A stretch of 64,000 bases of DNA from a virus (IMGVR_UViG_3300033067_000833:12344-76343), one strand, 5' to 3'. Counted from the stretch's first letter, positions 15,175 through 37,163 are shown. The notes: generated by a model not told the origin, from the sequence alone. Numbers and translations: made by a program.

Positions 15175-15214
15175 TGTGCAAATCTCCGTTAGGGTGTTGG
15201 CTAGACTGCCCTAA

Positions 15215-15242
15215 ATCTTAACGTCGGCATTATCCTTGTCAA
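15215..15242 (-). promoter_or_regulatory. Promoter TTGACA-N16-TAAGAT
   Basis: Read on the minus strand upstream of the sigma-like gene. Confidence 0.6.
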
Positions 15243-15410
15243 GCGTGAATCTGCCGTCTCGCAAGTCGAAGCGGCGGAGCGTTCCGTTGCCCCGATTGCC
15301 GGCGGCGCGGACCGGCCGCGCCGAGCCCCTTTCCCGCTATGGGATAGGGTTATCCATTAACCAGGCGGCTCCCATCCGGGTATTGCCGCCAGCATCCAAG
15401 GGAGATTGTC

Positions 15411-15575
15411 ATGTCATGTCCCCGCCAGCAGAAACCCATCGTCGTACATGCCTCTGTGTGGAAGCCTACAAAGTGGTTCCGCATCGCAGGCACCACCCAC
15501 CATGTCAAGTACATCCGGGACGCCAAGGACATCCTGGACAAAGCCGGAAGGACGCTGATCGTCAAGTTCCCGTAG
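15411..15575 (+). CDS. Small hypothetical protein (54 aa, not in the ORF track)
   Basis: MSCPRQQKPIVVHASVWKPTKWFRIAGTTHHVKYIRDAKDILDKAGRTLIVKFP with AAGGGAG RBS. Confidence 0.6.
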   Translation: MSCPRQQKPIVVHASVWKPTKWFRIAGTTHHVKYIRDAKDILDKAGRTLIVKFP

Positions 15576-15734
15576 AGGATTGGACCACTGACGCCCTACT
15601 GTCCCACTTGGTGGATGTGTACGGGCCGTCAGTCGTGTTCCCCAATGATGCCGACGCTGTCATGGATACTGCCTTGGCAGCGTTGGCCGCCTATGTTTGA
15701 GTGTTCAGTTGTGACCGCCAGAAGGAGACCTGTC

Positions 15735-15980
15735 ATGCGAATTAACCCCAAGATCAAGGCCAGTACGTTTGCAAGTGACTTGGAAGGCAGCCTGCTCACC
15801 TTCCCAGTCCGCAAGAGTGGTGACGATGGACACGAGATGATTGTCCTTAACGAGTGGTCCGCTGATATGGACCATGCCAAGCGGCGCGTGAACTGGGCCG
15901 CTACCAACATCCCGTCGTGGAATGACGCCAATCCCGTGGTCCGGTACACCCAAGTCAAACTGATCGCCATCGAGCAGTAG
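15735..15980 (+). CDS. Hypothetical protein
   Basis: MRINPKIK... with AAGGAG RBS. Confidence 0.65.
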   Translation: MRINPKIKASTFASDLEGSLLTFPVRKSGDDGHEMIVLNEWSADMDHAKRRVNWAATNIPSWNDANPVVRYTQVKLIAIEQ

Positions 15981-15985
15981 CCACC

Positions 15986-16045
15986 CCCTGTCGGCACCCC
16001 GCACCGCTGTCTGGCGGTGCGCGCCAAGTTCGACTCCCGGCAGGG
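15986..16045 (+). ncRNA. Degenerate tRNA-like fold (closing stem, internal hairpin, TTCGACT loop)
   Basis: CCCTG/CAGGG, GCACCGC/GCGGTGC, CCAAG-TTCGACT-CCCGG with two mismatches. Confidence 0.35.
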
Positions 16046-16296
16046 TCCTTTGTCCGATCCCCTTGGCCGCCAGCGCGGCTGACACGGGGGATTCCCTGCG
16101 CGCTCGGCGTGGCCGCCAGCGGAACCGGCGCGGAACGGCCGCCCGCTCCGATTGCGGCGGGACTCCGGCCGCGGTGGCCGGCGTTGCCGCCAGAAGCGAA
16201 TCAGGTTTACTGACGGGACTTTTGCGGCGAAATAGGCAAGCCGGTCCGAAGCCCGGCTAACCAACCCCAACCGCCCCGACGGGGCAGGAGTGAACG

Positions 16297-16497
16297 ATGA
16301 CGACCTGCACAATGACGACGGAGAAGGCCCTGCGAGAACTGGGACTTCGAGATGGAGTGGAATATCATCTCGACAACCAGCACGTCAACGGTCAGCGGTT
16401 ATGGTGGCTGAATCCGCAGGGGTTGACGGTTGAGATGGCTGTCAGCGATCTGCCGCTCTATCTGTACGAGCGGCTGGGCGTCGAAATCGAGGACTAG
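16297..16497 (+). CDS. Hypothetical protein
   Basis: AGGAG RBS; acidic C-terminus. Confidence 0.6.
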   Translation: MTTCTMTTEKALRELGLRDGVEYHLDNQHVNGQRLWWLNPQGLTVEMAVSDLPLYLYERLGVEIED

Positions 16498-16503
16498 CAA
16501 CCA

Positions 16504-16561
16504 GCCCTGTACCGCGTGAAAGCCAAGCGGGTGTAACACGGTTCCGACCCGTGGCGGGGCA
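16504..16561 (+). ncRNA. Anticodon-less tRNA mimic (7-bp acceptor, D-like arm, 5-bp T-arm)
   Basis: GCCCTGT/GCGGGGC, CCGC-N11-GCGG, CACGG-TTCCGAC-CCGTG stacked directly on the acceptor strand. Confidence 0.5.
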
Positions 16562-16677
16562 CTTTCAAGCAAGCATGTCGTTCGATTCAGCGGCATGTCG
16601 ATGTGTCCCAGTGATCCGGGCGTGGTGCGTTGCCACGCCCGGCGCTGGGTTTCAAGTTGTGCAAGGGAGATCGTGTC

Positions 16678-17574
16678 ATGTCCGGCGACAGAATGCCTGT
16701 CGGCGGGTCCGTCATTTGGTGGCGGCTCGCCAAGAGCACCGCCTTGGATACGCTTTCGAGCGGGTTCAAGGCACTGGGGCTCGAAGATTACATCCCGGAG
16801 CCAAGGACCGCCATGTCCTGCCTTCGGGCCGCCTTGTCCGACCGCTACGAGGTCGAGGACAAGAAGACGGAGCGGCTGGTTGTCCGCTCTGTGCCCAAGG
16901 GCTTCGTGGTGGTCAAGGAACGCCCCAAGGACGACAAGCGCTCCGGCGACGACTGGGGCGAGGTCGTGGCCACGGTAAAGCTGTCCGAGGACGAGAAGGA
17001 AGTCCTGCTGGACCCGTGGGACCGGGACATCCATGACGAGATCGTGGCCGCCATGACCGAGGCCAAGAAGTGGCTGTCGTCTGGTGCCGTGGGCGGCGCC
17101 CTGGTCAAGATCATCGAGGTCTGGGGGCTTTCCTTGCGTCCCAACGGCGGCGTGTACTGGCTGCCCAAGGACATGGTGTCCTGCTGGGATGCCGTGTCCA
17201 ACGTGATCGTCTCCGCGTCCGCCAAGAAGGACAAGGACGGCAAGGACGTGGACCCCAATCGGGTGTTCAAGCTAAACGTCGAGGCGGACACCGACATGGT
17301 GGAAGCCATCGGGGACATCCTGCAGAACGAGGTCGAGTCCGAACTGTCCCGGATCGAGTACGAGTTGCAGAGCGGCAATCTGGGCCAGCGTGCCATCGAG
17401 ACCCGTGAGGCCCGTGCCCAGCACTTGCTGAACAAGGTGTCCAAGTACGAGCAGGCTTTCCAGAAGAAGCTGGAGGGCTTGCAAGAGCAGTTTGCACGAT
17501 CCGAGTCTGCCGCGGCGATGGCCAAACTGGCTGCCATCGTCAAGGCCGAGCAAGAACAGGGGGTGGCGGCGTGA
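16678..17574 (+). CDS. Conserved hypothetical protein (DUF6744/DUF3150-like), partner of the MoxR/VWA pair
   Basis: LSLRPNGGVYWLP motif and C-terminal coiled coil; AAGGGAG RBS. Confidence 0.6.
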   Translation: MSGDRMPVGGSVIWWRLAKSTALDTLSSGFKALGLEDYIPEPRTAMSCLRAALSDRYEVEDKKTERLVVRSVPKGFVVVKERPKDDKRSGDDWGEVVATVKLSEDEKEVLLDPWDRDIHDEIVAAMTEAKKWLSSGAVGGALVKIIEVWGLSLRPNGGVYWLPKDMVSCWDAVSNVIVSASAKKDKDGKDVDPNRVFKLNVEADTDMVEAIGDILQNEVESELSRIEYELQSGNLGQRAIETREARAQHLLNKVSKYEQAFQKKLEGLQEQFARSESAAAMAKLAAIVKAEQEQGVAA

Positions 17575-17726
17575 ACGATACCGTCACACTGATTGTCCGC
17601 TGGAGCCATGCACGCCTGATGTGGCAGATTCTGTCCGAAGATGAGACGGAACTGTTCTACGAGTCAACGTGCTACGATGACATCACGGATTGGCTGGATG
17701 CCCATGCCGATCTGTGCGACGAATAA
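17571..17726 (+). CDS. Small acidic protein (51 aa, not in the ORF track)
   Basis: GTG start overlaps the upstream stop; MNDTVTLIVRWSHARLMWQILSEDETELFYESTCYDDITDWLDAHADLCDE. Confidence 0.55.
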   Translation: MNDTVTLIVRWSHARLMWQILSEDETELFYESTCYDDITDWLDAHADLCDE

Positions 17727-17785
17727 CCGTCTCGTGACGGTCTCCCCCGCCCTGTACAGCCTTGGAGAAGCTGGCAGGGCGGTTA

Positions 17786-17827
17786 CATCCCCGATGGCGT
17801 AGGCGGGTTCGATTCCCGCCGGGGATG
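17786..17827 (+). ncRNA. tRNA minihelix (acceptor stem plus canonical T-arm)
   Basis: CATCCCCG/CGGGGATG 8 bp, 9-nt linker ATGGCGTAG, GCGGG-TTCGATT-CCCGC. Confidence 0.55.
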
Positions 17828-18020
17828 CTTGCTACGATTCCGGCTGATCCCCGGAGAGCAACGCGAGAGTGCGGGATGGCACTGCCCAGAGCCCAGCGGC
17901 GATACAGCGGGACGAATTGGGCGGTCCATCATCCCGGATACCTGCGCCGCCAGTGTGACTCTGGGGCGGGATGCTTCAGCGCGGAACGCCGCGCCGCTCC
18001 GATTGCGAAAGGATTCGCCA

Positions 18021-18134
18021 ATGTTCGATTTGTGTTTCACCTGTGCCTGGGGTTCATCGGCCATCGTGTGGCTGGTAGGCTTTGCGGTGTTCACTTGGAC
18101 GCTGCAACGCAAGATCCCTGGGCTCGACGACTGA
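18021..18134 (+). CDS. Small membrane peptide
   Basis: MFDLCFTCAWGSSAIVWLVGFAVFTWTLQRKIPGLDD; AAGGA RBS. Confidence 0.5.
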   Translation: MFDLCFTCAWGSSAIVWLVGFAVFTWTLQRKIPGLDD

Positions 18135-18147
18135 AGGGAGATTCGCC

Positions 18148-19221
18148 ATGTCCGACAGAATGCCTGTCACCACCTTTGCGCAGCTCAACAGCGTGCTGCG
18201 TGACCTGATGTCGGCCAATGTGCCGGCGCTGATCCTTGGCCCGCCGGGAGTGGGCAAGACCGCCTGCTGCCAAGGGCTGCCCGACTACGACGCCGGGGAG
18301 CAGTACCACGAGGTCCGGGCTATCTACCATCGCCCCGAGGACTTCAAGTTCCCGATCGTGGACGTGGCCAACCAGGCCATTTCCTGGATTCAGTCCGTCA
18401 TGCCGACCGACCCCGCGTTCAAGGGAATTGTGTGCTTGGACGAACTGGGGCAGGCCGACCGGGACGTTCAGGCCGCCATGTTCGGCATCCTGAACTTCAA
18501 GGAGCGCCGGATCGGCAACTACACCATGCCGGTGGGCGCCAAGGTGATCGCCACGTCCAACCGGGTGACGGACAAGGCCGGCGTGCAGAAGATGCTCACC
18601 CCGCTCTTGTCCCGCGTGTGCCAGTTGGACTTCGAGCCGGATACCAGCCGGGCGTTGGGCCAGCGGACGTTCCACGACGAACTGTGCGAGTTCCTGCTGG
18701 GCACCAACCTGCCGGCCGCCGACCATGTGGTTGGCTTCCTGCGGGCCTTCCCGCAAAGCGTGTTGACGTTCAACGCCGATCGGCCGTCCGACAGCGCCAC
18801 GCCCCGTGGGTGGGAAATGCTGGCGGCGGCTCTGGCTCCCACTGTCCGGGAGACCGACCGCATCATCGCGGACGGCATCGTGGGACCGAGTGCCGCTGTG
18901 GAGTTCACGACGTACCGGGAGATCGCGGTACAGATTGACCCCCTGGCGATCCTGGCGAATCCCAAGGCGGCCAGCGTGCCTGAGAATCAACCGTCCCTCA
19001 TGTGGGCCACGGTGTCCTCTCTGACGGCCTGTGCGAAGAAGTGCGACGCCAAGCAGTTGAAGGCGATGGCGGAATACTTCTGCAAGTGCCCCGCCGAGTA
19101 CGCGGTGTACGGGGCCAAGGACGCCACGGCCGCCACGCCGAACAACGGGTTCTTGCAGGCTGCTGGGCAGACGGACTTCTTCAAGAAGTATGGTCCGCTG
19201 TTAGTTCAGCCGGGAGCGTGA
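18148..19221 (+). CDS. MoxR-like AAA+ ATPase
   Basis: Walker A GPPGVGKT, Walker B CLDEL, ATSNR sensor, ATPRGWE. Confidence 0.85.
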   Translation: MSDRMPVTTFAQLNSVLRDLMSANVPALILGPPGVGKTACCQGLPDYDAGEQYHEVRAIYHRPEDFKFPIVDVANQAISWIQSVMPTDPAFKGIVCLDELGQADRDVQAAMFGILNFKERRIGNYTMPVGAKVIATSNRVTDKAGVQKMLTPLLSRVCQLDFEPDTSRALGQRTFHDELCEFLLGTNLPAADHVVGFLRAFPQSVLTFNADRPSDSATPRGWEMLAAALAPTVRETDRIIADGIVGPSAAVEFTTYREIAVQIDPLAILANPKAASVPENQPSLMWATVSSLTACAKKCDAKQLKAMAEYFCKCPAEYAVYGAKDATAATPNNGFLQAAGQTDFFKKYGPLLVQPGA

Positions 19222-19222
19222 T

Positions 19223-19471
19223 ATGGCACAGCACTGGTTTCGCCGTGCAACGCCTGGAATGCAAGGCGTCCGCATGGCCGCTGAGTGGGAGCCAGTGGCC
19301 GATTCCGATGTGCCATTCGACGGCATTGTCACCAACCAAGCAAGGGTTTTATGGCACGACGGCCTTCGACTTGCCAACGTCGCGTTTTTCAAAGGGTATC
19401 AGTGGGCTCGTGTCGAACTCAATGAGATCGAGTTGCTGCAAGCCTACTCGCACTGGAAACTGAAGCACTGA
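19223..19471 (+). CDS. Hypothetical protein, probably an inserted gene
   Basis: Lower GC and flanked by a duplicated 3' end of the ATPase gene. Confidence 0.55.
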   Translation: MAQHWFRRATPGMQGVRMAAEWEPVADSDVPFDGIVTNQARVLWHDGLRLANVAFFKGYQWARVELNEIELLQAYSHWKLKH

Positions 19472-19504
19472 CGGGTCTTTGCTGGTGCAGCCGGGAGCGT
19501 GATC

Positions 19505-19759
19505 ATGCCCAAGCTGTGGTTCTTCAATGGAATCGGAGCGGTTGACAAGCCGCTCCTGGAAGTTCCGCCGAACGTTCCTGGGCTGAAGGACTGGATCGAG
19601 GCGCGGTTCTACTTGCGGCCTGGATGGCCAGACGAGATCAGCACGCGGTGGAACAACGATGGGACGATCGACTTGACGCTGGAACTGCGGTTCCGGCTTC
19701 GTACTGTGGACGAGGTGACGGCGTTGCAAGCCATCGCCAAGGCCGAACTGAACAAGTGA
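19505..19759 (+). CDS. Hypothetical protein
   Basis: GGGAG RBS, in operon. Confidence 0.6.
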   Translation: MPKLWFFNGIGAVDKPLLEVPPNVPGLKDWIEARFYLRPGWPDEISTRWNNDGTIDLTLELRFRLRTVDEVTALQAIAKAELNK

Positions 19760-19841
19760 CTGACGGGGTGCGATACTCCGGCCTTCTGCGGAAGGCCGGC
19801 TATCCTGTTCCGTTTGTTCTAAACCATAGGAAACCGAGCGC

Positions 19842-20063
19842 ATGTTCACACAAGAAGAATTGCTACAAATGGCAATTCGGGGAGAACGCCTGTACTTGGA
19901 AGGATTGAATATCCTGAAACAGTTTGAAGTGTGGGCGGAGAGTTACTACGGAAATCGGTCGCTAGGACGCGATCAAGAAATGTGGCGAGCATTTGACACG
20001 CTGATGTACCGAGTCAGCGGACATGCCATTGCCGGGGAGGATGACAGTGAGAATTCACACTGA
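19842..20063 (+). CDS. Hypothetical protein (AT-richer)
   Basis: AGGA RBS. Confidence 0.55.
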   Translation: MFTQEELLQMAIRGERLYLEGLNILKQFEVWAESYYGNRSLGRDQEMWRAFDTLMYRVSGHAIAGEDDSENSH

Positions 20064-20235
20064 ACGCTATCGCGGAAAGTTCCGCAAGAGGAAAGAGCAA
20101 GACTGCGGCCATGCTCGTTGCTGGCTGTGTCACGGGGAGAAACTGGCCCAACGTCCCCGCCGCCAAGAGATCCGGTCCAACGCCAACTTAAAGGAGATCG
20201 CGCAGTGCTTTACACAGGCCCAGTGTCAGCTTTAG
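20041..20235 (+). CDS. Small basic Cys/His protein
   Basis: DCGHARCWLCHGEK; GAGG RBS. Confidence 0.5.
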   Translation: MTVRIHTERYRGKFRKRKEQDCGHARCWLCHGEKLAQRPRRQEIRSNANLKEIAQCFTQAQCQL

Positions 20236-20318
20236 TAGGCTCGATTCCGCTGAATGCCGCGGCACAGGCTGCCGACGCAAGAGCGGAAAGCAAATCAAAT
20301 GACCCACTGGCCGCCCTG

Positions 20319-21569
20319 ATGGAGACGGCCAAACGCAAGGACTGCGAGGACAAGGCCAAGCTCGCACTCTCGGCCGCCAAGGTGGCCCTGATGTGCGGGA
20401 CGTGGCAGAAGAACCGCACGCCCGAAGCACTCGGCGCGTCGGCATTCTTCACCCGGCTTGTGCTCGCCCCCAAGTACGAGCCCTCGTGGGACATCCCCAC
20501 GGCTTGCACCGATGGCGCGACCATCCGGTACAACCCGGAGTACGTTGCCACCAACACCAAGCAGGTGATCGTGGGCCTGCTGGCAGAAGAAGGCGGACAC
20601 GCGGGCTTTGGGCACCATGTCCGCATGGCGCACCTCGCCAAGCAGTACGGGGACGACTACGACCCCAAGTTGGCGAATGTGGCCGCCGACCTGGCCCTGC
20701 TGGGACTGCTCAAGCAGGCCGGGTTCGACATCCCGGCCGACTGCTGCTTGCCGGGCGAGAAAGGCCCGTACAAGGACTTCCCGGTGGGCGAGGCGATGGA
20801 AGCCTACTACGCCCGGTTGCACCAGAAGCGATCCAAGGACAAGACCACGGACTGCCCAAAGGGACCGGGGCGTGGAGACATTCAGATGCCTCCCAATACG
20901 TCCGATGGAGGTCTCAAAAAGGAAATGCAGAAGTGCAAGGAGTGGCTACAAGCGGCGTCCCAAGAGGGGCATCGCCGCGGGCAGTTGCCGGGTGCCCTGG
21001 AGTACGCGGTCAGCACGGCACTGAAGCCGGTGATCGACGCACGGGAAGTGCTGGCAGAGTTCCTGAGCAAGTTCGCCGAGACCGACCGCTCGTGGCAGCG
21101 TCCCAACCGGCGGTACGCTTCCCAGGGGATCTACCTGCCGAGCGAGGCCGGACAGTCGCTTGGCCACTTGGTACTGCTCAATGACACGTCGGGCAGCTTG
21201 GACAACGACAAGGCCCGGCAGCGGTTCCTCGCGGAAGCGGTGGGCATGGTCAGCGCCTATCCGCTGACGAAAGTCACGGTGATCCATCACGACAGCGTGG
21301 TACAAGGCGTGGACGAATGGACGCCGGGCGAAGGCGGCGACCTGCCGTGGAAGCCCAAGGGCGGTGGCGGTACGAGCCACGTCCCTCCGTTCGACGCGAT
21401 GTATGCGATGGACGAGTTGCCGGATCTGTGCATCGCCCTGACTGATCTGGAGACTGAGTTCCACCCTGACGCCCCGGACTTCCCGGTGCTGTGGTGTACC
21501 GTGAAGGACCACCCCATCCCGTATGGGCAGAAAGTTGACATCGGATCGCTCGGAGACGAGTGCTGGTGA
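20319..21569 (+). CDS. DUF2201-type metallopeptidase-like plus VWA domain protein (start uncertain)
   Basis: TACTDG..I.YNP, LAEEGGHAGFGH in place of HExxH, MIDAS DTSGS, GGGGTS, LTDLET. Confidence 0.8.
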   Translation: METAKRKDCEDKAKLALSAAKVALMCGTWQKNRTPEALGASAFFTRLVLAPKYEPSWDIPTACTDGATIRYNPEYVATNTKQVIVGLLAEEGGHAGFGHHVRMAHLAKQYGDDYDPKLANVAADLALLGLLKQAGFDIPADCCLPGEKGPYKDFPVGEAMEAYYARLHQKRSKDKTTDCPKGPGRGDIQMPPNTSDGGLKKEMQKCKEWLQAASQEGHRRGQLPGALEYAVSTALKPVIDAREVLAEFLSKFAETDRSWQRPNRRYASQGIYLPSEAGQSLGHLVLLNDTSGSLDNDKARQRFLAEAVGMVSAYPLTKVTVIHHDSVVQGVDEWTPGEGGDLPWKPKGGGGTSHVPPFDAMYAMDELPDLCIALTDLETEFHPDAPDFPVLWCTVKDHPIPYGQKVDIGSLGDECW

Positions 21570-21766
21570 CGAATACCCTATGTTGCGTTGTGGCCCCGCC
21601 AAGTTCCAGCAGCGAATGGTTTGTTCCAAGGCGGCTTTGATCGCTCGAATGCTTGGCCGGGGCCGCCGTCCTGAATAGGACGCTCGCCGCCGAGGTAGAA
21701 AGAGAGGAACGATGACTGAGCGAAGGGCGGTGCTACAGCGCCCGTGACCAATCTGTAGCATGTGCT

Positions 21767-21871
21767 GGGACCGTGGCGTAAATGGAAAACGCTGCTTTGC
21801 AAAGGGCACCTACCGCTGGTCAGCAGCGGGGCGCTGGAGCCAACATGCGGGTTCGATTCCCGCCGGTCCCT
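21767..21871 (+). tRNA. Atypical tRNA-Cys(GCA)-like RNA with an oversized variable region
   Basis: GGGACCG/CGGTCCC acceptor, U discriminator, GCGT-AAATGGAAA-ACGC D-arm, TTGCAAA loop on a weak bulged stem, 38-nt variable region, GCGGG-TTCGATT-CCCGC; no encoded CCA. Confidence 0.5.
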
Positions 21872-22132
21872 CTGGAATCCAGCTTGCCGCCAGTGGCCCC
21901 GGTGATTCGCCGGGTGCCGATACTGGTGGGCGACGATGGTGAGCGTCCGGCATTACGCCAAAGCTTTCAGGTAGTTTTCCTGAGTACAGGACCGCAAGCT
22001 AAACTACCTGCATCTTTGGCCTAAGTGCTCCTTGTGGATTCCGCACGGTTTGCGCTGCCTGTGGATGGCCCGGTGACATCGCCGGGGACCGCAGAAGCAG
22101 GCGACGAAGGTAAATTTCTCGCATCGACAAAT

Positions 22133-22189
22133 GGCGTACCGTGCTGACGTGCGACTGGTCCCGCGGGTTCGAGTCCCGCACGCACGCCT
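22133..22189 (+). ncRNA. Mini tRNA-like element
   Basis: GGCGT/ACGCC closing stem followed by T; GCGGG-TTCGAGT-CCCGC T-arm. Confidence 0.45.
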
Positions 22190-22355
22190 TGACCGCCAGA
22201 GGATAGCTGGCTGGCACCAGGCCCCGGTGTATCGCCGGGGAACCGCCTGCATCCGACTCTGGTTTTTTGGGCAGCGTCTCGAAAGGGACGTTCAGCGGAA
22301 ACGCTGGCAATGCAGCCGCTCACAATGCGGCCGGAGTGTTTTTTCTGAAGGGAGT

Positions 22356-22556
22356 ATGACCATGCTTGTTCTGACCCGCCACGACGGCCAGAAGATCGTC
22401 CTGCCCGCGTTGGGCGTGACGTTCACCGTCGTCCGCATCGAAGGGGACCGCGTGCGTATCGGCATCGAGGCCCCGCGTGATGTGAAGATCCTGCGCAACG
22501 AGCATTTCCCCTTGAAGGCACTGGAGGATGACCATGACAGCGACCGCAACCCGTAA
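22356..22556 (+). CDS. csrA: Carbon storage regulator CsrA-like RNA-binding protein
   Basis: MLVLTR..GQKI.....TFTVVRIEGDRVRIGIEAPRDVKILRNE. Confidence 0.9.
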   Translation: MTMLVLTRHDGQKIVLPALGVTFTVVRIEGDRVRIGIEAPRDVKILRNEHFPLKALEDDHDSDRNP

Positions 22557-23118
22557 GCGTGGCCTGCCGTTCAAGCGGCTGTCCAAGGCCGCCAAGGAGC
22601 GGGCCATCGAGTGGATGCGTGACAAGCTCAATGGCGACTGGTTCGACCCAGAACCGCTGACCGAACTGTTTCGAGAGCACCTTGCCGAGCACGGGTTCCC
22701 GAACATGGAGGCTTACTGGTCGCTGGGACACTGCCAGGGCGATGGCGTTGACATCGAGGGCTCGATCGACATCGGCAAGTTAGCCGAGACGGACGAGTTC
22801 GTGCTGACTTGTCTCGCCAAGGGCGTGCTGCTGGGTGTAGGAACCTTGGATGATTGGGACTTTAGCTGCAAAGTGAAGTGTAGCCGGGTCGAACTGGAAT
22901 GGATGTGCTACAGCAACGCATTTCATGACTGTCAGAGTGCCGTTGACGACATTGGACTGGCACTGAAAAAGCATCTGAATGACCTCATTTACAGCTTGCA
23001 ACGGAAGCTCTCCAAGTACGGATACGACGAAATCAACTACCTGACATCCAAGGAGCGCGCCATCGAGAGCATCGAGGCCAACGACTACAGCTTCGACTGT
23101 GAAGGAGACATCCTGTGA
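22528..23118 (+). CDS. Conserved hypothetical early protein
   Basis: LSKAAKERAIEW...ESIEANDYSFDCEG pattern common in mobile elements; its stop overlaps the RT start. Confidence 0.65.
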   Translation: MTMTATATRKRGLPFKRLSKAAKERAIEWMRDKLNGDWFDPEPLTELFREHLAEHGFPNMEAYWSLGHCQGDGVDIEGSIDIGKLAETDEFVLTCLAKGVLLGVGTLDDWDFSCKVKCSRVELEWMCYSNAFHDCQSAVDDIGLALKKHLNDLIYSLQRKLSKYGYDEINYLTSKERAIESIEANDYSFDCEGDIL

Positions 23119-24011
23119 CCAGACGCAAAGCCCGAACCCCGAAGCCCGAGTTCGACATTCTCAAGATCAGCAAAGGCAATGGCAAGTTCCGCACGATTTA
23201 TCGCCCCCGCCGGGACATCAAGGCGACGCTGCGGACCTACATCCCGGTCCTGGAGGAGATTGCCCTGAAGCTCTGCCCGCCCAACGTGGTGCATGGCTTC
23301 TGGCCCGCCCGCAACTGCGTGTCGAACGCGCAGATGCACGTTGGGACGTGGCGGTACACCGTCTGCATGAACCTGAAGGACTTCTTCGACCACTGCACAG
23401 ACGCGATGCTGGGGCCTGCAATCGACCCGCAGCCAGCGTTTCACGGGAGCATCCCACGGATACTGACCCCGGATGGTGCTTGCCGCCAGGGCCTGCCAAC
23501 GTCCCCCGCCGCGGCCAACGTATGCTTCGCGGCGTGCGACCACGACATCATCAGCGCCCTCAAGGCGGCCGGCATCCAGTTCGTCTACTCCCGCTACGCC
23601 GACGACCTCACGTTTTCGGTGATGACACGGGAAGCGGTTGACGCGATACTGAGCATCGTTCCCAAGGTGGTCCGCGACCGTGGCTTCGTCCTGAACGAGA
23701 AGAAAACCCACGTCCAGTACGCCGGGGCCGGGCGTCGTGTGATTACGGGCGTCGCCGTGGACGAGACGAGCGTGTACCCCACGCGGAAGTCTCGCCGCCG
23801 GCTGCGGGCCGCCAAGCACAAGATGACCCTCCCGTGCAAGTACGGGGTGGGGCTGCACCGCAAGCACCGGGCCGCTGGGCTCGCCGAGTGGTGCAAGTGC
23901 AAGCCGCCCATGTACGGGCGCAAGGCTCGTAAAGAGATGGCGGGCAATCCGGACGAGGCGTTGTTGATCGCTGCCAAGGCCAAGCAGTACGGAGTGCAGG
24001 ATCATGCCTGA
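23115..24011 (+). CDS. Retron-type reverse transcriptase with Asn at the motif-A catalytic position
   Basis: ISKGNGKFRTIYRP, HGF, NAQMH (NAxxH), MNLKDFF, RQGLPTSP, YSRYADDLTFS, NEKKT, VITG; GAAGGAG RBS. Confidence 0.9.
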   Translation: MTRRKARTPKPEFDILKISKGNGKFRTIYRPRRDIKATLRTYIPVLEEIALKLCPPNVVHGFWPARNCVSNAQMHVGTWRYTVCMNLKDFFDHCTDAMLGPAIDPQPAFHGSIPRILTPDGACRQGLPTSPAAANVCFAACDHDIISALKAAGIQFVYSRYADDLTFSVMTREAVDAILSIVPKVVRDRGFVLNEKKTHVQYAGAGRRVITGVAVDETSVYPTRKSRRRLRAAKHKMTLPCKYGVGLHRKHRAAGLAEWCKCKPPMYGRKARKEMAGNPDEALLIAAKAKQYGVQDHA

Positions 24012-24204
24012 GTTCACCCTGACAAACGACCGGCGCGGAACGCCGCGACGCTCCGAATTTGCGGACAACGAGCGGTCGAAACAACTGCTGCTGCTGAGTG
24101 GTCTGAACTGCGCCAGCGGCCAGAAGGATCTGTTCCCAGACCTCGACACTTTCCCCAAGGAGACCTCCGATGCCCAAACCCATCCCGACCGAAGCCGAGA
24201 TTGA
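24004..24204 (+). CDS. Small hypothetical protein
   Basis: LLSGLNCASGQKDLF; overlaps the RT stop. Confidence 0.55.
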   Translation: MPEFTLTNDRRGTPRRSEFADNERSKQLLLLSGLNCASGQKDLFPDLDTFPKETSDAQTHPDRSRD

Positions 24205-36905: not shown

Positions 36906-37163
36906 TCACTCCTTCAGAAGTTCTGTTGGTTCGACTCCAAACGCCTTGGCCAAATCAGCCACCGTTCGCAGCGTCGGGATTGCCTTCCCTCTTTCCAGCC
37001 GATTCATCCACGACTGGAACCGGCCAAGCCGCTCGGCCAAGTCGTACTGAGTCCACTCGCGCTCCTTGCGCAAGCGGATCACGTTGGCCACCACGATTTC
37101 TTCGAGCGGCCTCGACTTCTTCCTTTTTTTTCCAGAGTTGGCGCTCGCGGAAACACGTTTCAC
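36906..37163 (-). CDS. XRE-family HTH regulator
   Basis: GTG start with GGAGG RBS; LRKEREWTQYDLAERLG..QSWMNRLERG. Confidence 0.85.
   Translation of the reverse strand: MKRVSASANSGKKRKKSRPLEEIVVANVIRLRKEREWTQYDLAERLGRFQSWMNRLERGKAIPTLRTVADLAKAFGVEPTELLKE

Follow-up and report, generated by a model that had tools for sequence, protein, structure and literature searches.

The early operon of the virus record IMGVR_UViG_3300033067_000833 contains, between positions 15,986 and 22,189, several small folds in which the T arm of a transfer RNA (tRNA) stacks on an acceptor-like closing stem, and the question raised by this locus is what purpose the top half of a tRNA could serve within a phage transcript. 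The stretch analysed, hereafter the window, comprises 64 kb of the 76,343-bp record (G+C content 61%); the completeness of the record is estimated at ~68%, and absences of genes are read within these 76 kb. A first-pass annotation of the window had listed at least five intergenic T-arm folds, here termed A, 2, B, D and C, and a sixth variant, F (Table 1), and had proposed three functions: ribonuclease (RNase) P/Z processing signals, decoys, or templates and primers for a reverse transcriptase (RT). Comparison with related genomes indicates that a family of non-decoding tRNA mimics, under selection for structure, is real for five of these six folds. The function favoured here, with a probability of roughly 0.5, is to segment the early transcript by serving RNase P, RNase Z and the CCA-adding enzyme as cutting signals.

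Relatives were reached through homologues of the ATPase encoded in the operon and form a close clade (L001-L004, 79-88% protein identity) and a distant clade (L005-L011, ~52%), the gene order, RT gene included, being common to the window and both clades. Throughout the close clade, T-arm elements stand at the same three positions as in the window (sites A, B/F and C), each of them a border between gene modules, and covariation across relatives, set beforehand as a check, revealed conserved pairing at all three. The TTCGA of the T loop is constant in 15 of 15 intact T-arm copies (four of B, five of C, two of D, three of A and the B of L001, whose loop is one base short), whereas the "anticodon" middle varies from 7 to 73 nucleotides (nt) and is of unrelated sequence between genomes. 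The acceptor/T stacks comprise 12-13 pairs, G.U pairs are confined to the gene strand, CCA is not encoded, and the trailers are pyrimidine-rich. The T-arm motif that defines plant t-elements, GGTTCRANYCC, is exact in B, C and D and one base off in the A of the window, being exact in the A of relatives; it is absent from F and element 2. An alignment of B and C contains six pairs with double changes, a figure as high being reached in 0 of 500 shuffles, and sliding of the partner strand abolishes the pairing. Given that pairing is kept while flanks and middles diverge, the pattern is that of an RNA structure under selection for its top half, unlike what decaying genes or a double-stranded DNA site would leave. 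By this comparative evidence the elements are selected, non-decoding RNA structures derived from tRNA, and the alternative that all of them are decaying copies of ordinary tRNA genes, which the first-pass annotation had itself raised, is contradicted by the compensatory changes.

The description of the elements as anticodon-less is borne out by gene finders and covariance models alike. ARAGORN calls no tRNA gene in the window or in the whole 76-kb record, and D is the only Rfam match of the window at gathering level, with a tRNA score (RF00005) of 38.1 bits against a threshold of 29; all other elements score lower. A, B, C and F possess neither D arm nor anticodon arm, no copy has a usable anticodon arm, and the elements are therefore unable to decode; a canonical tRNA gene was rejected as an identity, the 5-bp anticodon stem and 7-nt loop with U33 being found in no element.

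Elements B and F illustrate how the pairing is retained. The minimum free energy fold of B is the proposed fold (z = -2.6), and its closing stem is perfectly paired in five of five genomes in three different sequences, with six of seven pairs changed on both sides between the window and L002, around a middle of 9-36 nt. The loop of F keeps the first T and the fifth A of a T loop (positions 54 and 58), positions 55-56 having been lost, and both its outer and inner stems are kept by compensatory changes (two outer pairs and one inner pair), which upholds its listing as a sixth variant. Since F aligns over its full length with the single, orthologous canonical T-arm element of L003 and L004, it is taken to be a diverged copy; the window, L001 and L002 carry in addition an extra copy (B) and ~100 nt of conserved hairpins between B and F. 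Covariation in the closing stems of B and F was counted both by script and by eye, the variable middle being misplaced by MAFFT. Directly upstream of B, the hairpin pair hp1-hp2 folds with z = -3.8 (0 of 200 shuffles fold as well), and hp2 combines a covarying stem with a conserved apical loop containing GGA.

Element C is present in five of five genomes, with one compensatory pair in L004, its core being shorter than the 22133-22189 first assigned to it. Element A begins 6 nt past the stop codon at 15978-15980, and in L001, L002 and L003 its orthologues combine a fully paired T stem of 5 bp and a TTCGACT loop with closing stems that shift and covary. In the window only three of the five T-stem pairs remain, so that A, although conserved as an element, is judged from its orthologues to be decayed here. 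Readthrough of the stop codon across A was considered and is excluded, a 1-nt indel in relatives breaking the frame. The observation that two folds start close to a stop codon holds, the stops ending at 15980 and 16497, the second of these preceding element 2, the one listed fold without support. Element 2 has a 7-nt loop without the T-loop signature (no A58) and folds no better than shuffles (z = -1.1); it lies inside an insertion specific to the window (16194-16664) that is absent from relatives, and no similar fold is present beside the L029 open reading frame (ORF), the sole homologue found of the ORF that neighbours it. The same insertion carries a 66-amino-acid ORF, a strong hairpin of 10 bp (16618-16643) and, near 16579, a stretch that resembles a degenerate T loop. 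B, F, D and C are thus sound, A is conserved with a T stem that is broken in the window, and element 2 is unsupported.

Element D is the most complete of the copies, and its score is contributed by the acceptor, D and T arms. In place of the 17-nt anticodon arm it has 44 nt, which form three small hairpins in a constrained fold, and ARAGORN calls it only with a forced intron. It is present only in the window and in L001, where the orthologue (L001:7485-7554) scores 47.9 bits and has a different, degenerate middle with a weak stem and G at position 33 in place of U33; two D-stem pairs are compensatory between the two genomes.

Table 1. Positions of the tRNA-like elements, the adjoining RNAs and the neighbouring genes; coordinates are those of the window unless a relative is named
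Feature	Position	Strand	Description
Element A	15986-16045	+	closing stem, inner 8-bp hairpin 16000-16021, T-arm region 16024-16040
Element 2	16504-16561	+	cloverleaf-like topology only; no support as family member
Element B	17786-17827	+	armless tRNA minihelix: 8-bp closing stem, 9-nt linker, 5-bp T stem, TTCGATT loop
Element F ("sixth variant")	17930-17973	+	7-bp closing stem; 4-bp hairpin, 7-nt loop
Element D	21767-21871	+	7-bp acceptor stem, D arm with GG in loop, T arm; no encoded CCA
Element C	core 22148-22186	+	six pairs and one A.A mismatch, 8-nt linker, T arm, TTCGAGT loop
Site A	after small gene preceding DUF6744 gene		close clade
Site B/F	between small ORF after DUF6744 and membrane-ORF/ATPase block		close clade
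Site C	within non-coding block after DUF2201		close clade
Conserved hairpins hp1 and hp2	17727-17740; 17747-17782	+	directly upstream of B
Retron-like non-coding RNA	L003:13441-13620; L001:8574-8750; L002:13536-13745; L004:3901-4085		starts 3 nt after C
Truncated retron-like RNA remnant	22190-22275	+	5' arm, UAGC, one hairpin, 6-bp closure and T6 run remain
DUF6744 protein gene	16678-17574	+	rightward block
MoxR-type ATPase gene	18148-19221	+	rightward block
DUF2201 metallopeptidase/VWA protein gene	~20205-21569	+	rightward block
Non-coding block, 780 nt	after DUF2201 gene, ahead of csrA		holds C and D
csrA	22356-22556	+	followed by one ORF, then RT gene
Retron-type reverse transcriptase gene	23115-24011	+	present in close and distant clades

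The elements belong to a rightward gene block that begins near 15236; all of them lie on the gene strand within non-coding gaps of one operon, transcription itself being assumed. The + strand from 15200 to 22190 yielded neither a sigma-70-type promoter nor an intrinsic terminator; a host search with the DUF2201 protein through 300 Burkholderiales and 300 Planctomycetota genomes returned matches of 31-36% or none. Chance controls within the single window are weak: the T-loop motif (one mismatch at most) has 11 matches where 6.3 are expected, and a lax descriptor has four where 0.77 are expected. It is the comparative data, not these controls, that carry the case. One T-loop-like motif, at 36925, was set aside as chance, since it is set against minus-strand genes and its fold is no better than shuffles. 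A covariance model made from B and C (R1) found no further copies in the genome (the window and the 12.4 kb outside it) or among the distant clade; the INPHARED phages contain no DNA match to the 7-kb region, and IMG/VR yielded a single relative. A pattern scan of metagenomes found no additional relatives, although it did yield a similar minihelix on one unrelated phage contig, as well as two tRNA-like 3' ends. The former is a near-perfect C-type minihelix (L023:4719-4761) that starts 12 nt past a stop codon, on a phage-like contig encoding a phage metallopeptidase and a Dam methylase.

A stack of 12-13 acceptor/T pairs with a T loop has the shape of a substrate for RNase P, RNase Z and the CCA-adding enzyme. 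There are two precedents for the use of such a shape outside decoding: first, RNase P cleaves the YrlA RNA of Mycobacterium smegmatis, in which an acceptor-like stem of 7 bp is combined with a T arm, and CCA is added to this RNA in vivo (Chen et al. 2014, PMC4201824). Second, RNase P/Z cleavage at the ends of plant mRNAs is guided by t-elements (Forner et al. 2007, PMC1920247). Given the substrate-shaped stack and these precedents, processing signals are the favoured explanation, and of the three functions first proposed they also fit best with the missing CCA, the gene strand, the positions at module borders and the lack of promoters and terminators. Directly observed are the folds with their strand and conserved positions, together with the selection on pairing; from these we infer all of the enzymatic steps, the cutting itself included. 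In the proposed scheme, the top-half modules (a closing stem stacked on a T arm, with the D arm kept in D) would form part of the rightward, polycistronic early RNA; RNase P would cleave where the closing stem begins on its 5' side, the 3' side would be cut just past the discriminator base by RNase Z or trimming exonucleases, and the CCA-adding enzyme may cap the freed minihelix. The operon RNA would be split in this way at three borders, namely behind the gene that ends at 15980, ahead of the membrane-ORF/ATPase/DUF2201 block and within the 780 nt of non-coding sequence, and the flanking RNAs would gain defined ends. The cut at C would make the 5' end of a retron-like RNA that, in relatives, lies 3 nt downstream.

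Several observations weigh against a role in processing. The distant clade, with the same gene order, carries plain hairpins in place of tRNA-like elements, which suggests that the function can be achieved without tRNA mimicry. The lost T-stem pairs of A (two in the window) and the loss of U55-C56 from F show that some sites can do without a canonical T loop. Element C carries its A.A mismatch at the junction, and one or two unpaired bases separate the hairpin from the closing strand in L003, in L004 and in F, which makes for a non-ideal RNase P substrate. The proposed scheme presupposes a host with RNase Z, and it also depends on whether the tRNA genes of that host encode CCA. Furthermore, the comparison spans only five genomes at 79-88% protein identity, and part of the sequence conservation reflects shared ancestry.

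An alternative is that the elements are structural end-caps or insulators, whose stable fold blocks exonucleases or RNase E scanning and sets the half-lives of cistrons without any cut by RNase P or RNase Z. The stems are indeed GC-rich and stable, F and the A of the window keep their stems and not a canonical T loop, and the intergenic spacers of the distant clade contain plain hairpins. However, this explanation is considered unlikely for two reasons: first, it leaves unexplained the TTCGA loop and the G53-C61 closing pair in 15 copies. Second, it does not account for a T arm stacked on a 7-bp closing stem where a simple hairpin would suffice.

It is also conceivable that the released minihelices are the functional product and sequester, as decoys or sponges, a host factor that recognises the top half of tRNAs, such as an acceptor-end defence toxin, the CCA-adding enzyme, TruB/TrmA or a partner of the Rsr/Y-RNA type. 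Several copies are present per genome, and D keeps the elbow formed by the D-loop GG and the T loop. Moreover, an exact 24-mer of D, covering the T arm and acceptor strand, occurs in four of ~185,000 species genomes: in Rfam-confirmed YrlA RNAs of Ideonella and Aquabacterium metagenome-assembled genomes (MAGs) of the Burkholderiales (L013:4552-4684 and L014:7839-7972), in a YrlA-like locus of a TROVE-encoding Planctomycetota MAG (L015, near 2953), and in an unpermuted, anticodon-less tRNA look-alike within a tRNA array on a Cryomorphaceae MAG contig (L012:5393-5482). Nevertheless, a 24-nt match is within chance for a common T arm, and no gene for a TROVE protein (Rsr/Ro60) has a match in the ~68% complete record. 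Identity with YrlA is rejected on score, the best being 18.3 bits at 17776-17891 against a gathering score of 69, and on topology, given that the permuted order of YrlA (T arm, acceptor hairpin, D arm) is not found: D is unpermuted, and at B the downstream strand that a YrlA reading requires is invariant while the strand following the T arm covaries with the upstream strand. A weak YrlA match at genome position 4647 was judged to be noise. Finally, elements without an anticodon cannot serve as decoys for anticodon nucleases. A decoy role is rated as improbable, below that of an end-cap.

Turnover among the copies bears on whether the elements descend from a former phage tRNA cluster as neutral relics that duplication and gene conversion have spread and that now have no function. 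The 20-mers at 17803 (B) and 21847 (D) are, as first noted, identical, with 0.02 such matches expected by chance; the copy at 22163 (C) has, as had been claimed, a single loop base changed in the 17-nt T arm, and three bases changed over the 20-mer. TGGCGTA stands upstream of all three. Given that the B of the window shares TGGCGTA and the 20-mer with D and has a closing stem of the L003 type, its interior points to conversion between copies. Such conversion, the decayed T stem of A in the window, the poor copy that is element 2 and the restriction of D to the window and L001 are what relics would be expected to display; against this, closing stems are kept paired by compensatory changes across five genomes while flanks and middles diverge, and A, B/F and C retain their positions, which leaves neutral relics with little probability.

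The retron-type RT gene raises a further question, as it lies 0.9 kb downstream of C, with C and D in the non-coding block ahead of it, and its product matches retron RT models at ~1e-38. A role of the elements as primers or templates for this RT, as first proposed, would account for that proximity, but it has very little probability as stated: A and B/F are 5-7 kb upstream, and L005 and L009, of the distant clade, retain the RT without any T-arm element, which argues that minihelices are not its general template or primer. A different partner is more likely. In L001-L004 a helix of ~16 pairs, closing an RNA of 175-210 nt, begins 3 nt after C; many pairs of this helix are changed on both sides between genomes, 16 such pairs being counted among the 60 of the predicted structure, and the 5' arm is followed by a conserved UAGC, a hairpin with a conserved tip and a second long hairpin (z = -3.3 for the fold in L003). 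The branching G of retrons stands in an AGC context. Retron RNAs are marked by terminal inverted repeats and by a branching G close to their 5' end (PMC11701397). With its covarying terminal inverted repeats, its UAGC and the RT downstream, the RNA after C looks like a retron msr-msd, and it is this separate RNA, not the minihelix, that is the probable partner of the RT.

In the window itself, ~357 nt of the retron-like RNA are gone, comprising the long hairpin and the 3' arm, apparently by recombination between two copies of the repeated hairpin tip. In addition, the RT has Asn (codon near 23370) where four of four compared relatives, from both clades, have Asp, this site being the conserved Asp of the first catalytic motif (CMDLKDFF-type). 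The truncated RNA and the Asn together suggest that the retron module has been inactivated in the window phage, element C itself being intact.

Sites acting at the level of DNA, for attachment or recombination and copying tRNA 3' ends, are hardly credible: tRNA 3' ends are common integration targets and an 800-nt insertion in L001 starts at the 3' edge of D, but an attachment core must match a host gene, whereas here the closing strands covary and the 5' strands would be needless, G.T pairs are strand-specific, the recombinase of L002 and L003 is of the serine type and ~10 kb away, and element sequences were seen at no prophage junction in the genomes searched. The insertion in L001 (7557-8362) contains a small ORF and a long array of 12-nt tandem repeats.

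The principle of tRNA-like processing signals is itself known, and the elements can be compared with systems in which it operates. Working tRNAs between cistrons are cutting marks for RNase P and RNase Z, both in the punctuation of mitochondrial transcripts and in bacterial tRNA-mRNA co-transcripts; the phage elements are likewise tRNA-shaped units between cistrons but do not decode. In MALAT1 and NEAT1, RNase P cleavage at a tRNA-like module sets the end of the adjacent non-coding RNA. The mascRNA and MEN-beta modules of these transcripts (RF01684) parallel the arrangement of C and the retron-like RNA, in that a tRNA-like module stands next to a functional non-coding RNA, although they are eukaryotic and the MALAT1 module lies 3' of its functional RNA where C lies 5'. 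The RF01684 model scores 22.2 bits at B and 22.7 bits at the A of L001, below its threshold of 42.5. The t-elements of plant mitochondria share with the phage elements a non-canonical tRNA-like fold, the conserved T-arm motif, a location within longer transcripts beside coding regions and the lack of decoding, and they are cut by RNase P and RNase Z, the freed piece receiving non-encoded C/A (Forner et al. 2007, PMC1920247). They differ in being organellar, served by a protein-only RNase P and mapped at their ends, whereas the elements described here belong to a phage operon of a bacterial host and are known from sequence, most copies being reduced to an acceptor stem and T arm. YrlA (RF02553; Chen et al. 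2014, PMC4201824) is likewise a non-decoding tRNA mimic with a T arm, a D arm and an acceptor-like stem, and shares the exact 24-mer with D; however, it is circularly permuted, bears a Ro-binding stem and stands beside rsr, none of which applies here.

A literature search found no paper describing such elements in phages, and three features are new in this case: a cloverleaf-like copy with a D arm, turnover by duplication and conversion, and the location immediately 5' of a retron-like RNA. Should the tRNA enzymes of the host indeed cut at these sites, phage operons would hold an RNA punctuation that gene callers, tRNA finders and Rfam miss, which would change the mapping of phage transcripts and the view of gene dosage within an operon. 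Having a mimic immediately before the retron-like RNA hints at a way for a retron to be accommodated within a polycistronic message. The arrangement would be a natural counterpart to engineered tRNA-flanked guide-RNA arrays, and modules that have been duplicated, converted and pared down, with the top half under selection, would provide natural data on the minimal needs of RNase P, RNase Z and the CCA-adding enzyme. A wider proposal, that phages in general use tRNA top-half mimics to cut non-coding RNAs and modules from early transcripts, with C as the handle that makes the 5' end of the retron RNA and CCA-tailed minihelices possibly acting as decoys for acceptor-end readers, is tentative and, on balance, doubtful.

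Further repeated features accompany the elements. In the distant clade, spacers of ~80 nt stand between nearly all early genes (L005:1-15000) and contain families of plain hairpins that share their flanks, perhaps a non-tRNA-like counterpart of the punctuation. CsrA sites present GGA in hairpin loops; the phage encodes CsrA, and GGA occurs in the loops of the conserved hairpins at 17747-17782 and 22196-22210, so that the non-coding block might also be a putative CsrA-binding RNA. The heptamer CCGCCAG, often preceded by TTGN, occurs 30 times where 17.9 are expected and is clustered on the gene strand of the early region (+ strand sites at 15386, 15422, 15715, 16067, 16113, 16187, 17947, 21887, 22193 and others), often no more than 25 nt past a tRNA-like element; several of the sites make up the 5' arm of a hairpin or of the long-range helix. 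Finally, a bipartite repeat of ~30 nt, of the type GCGCGGAACG ... CCGCTCCGATTGCG, stands ahead of three genes (16128-16165, 17979-18016 and 24029-24056) and may be a candidate promoter or operator.

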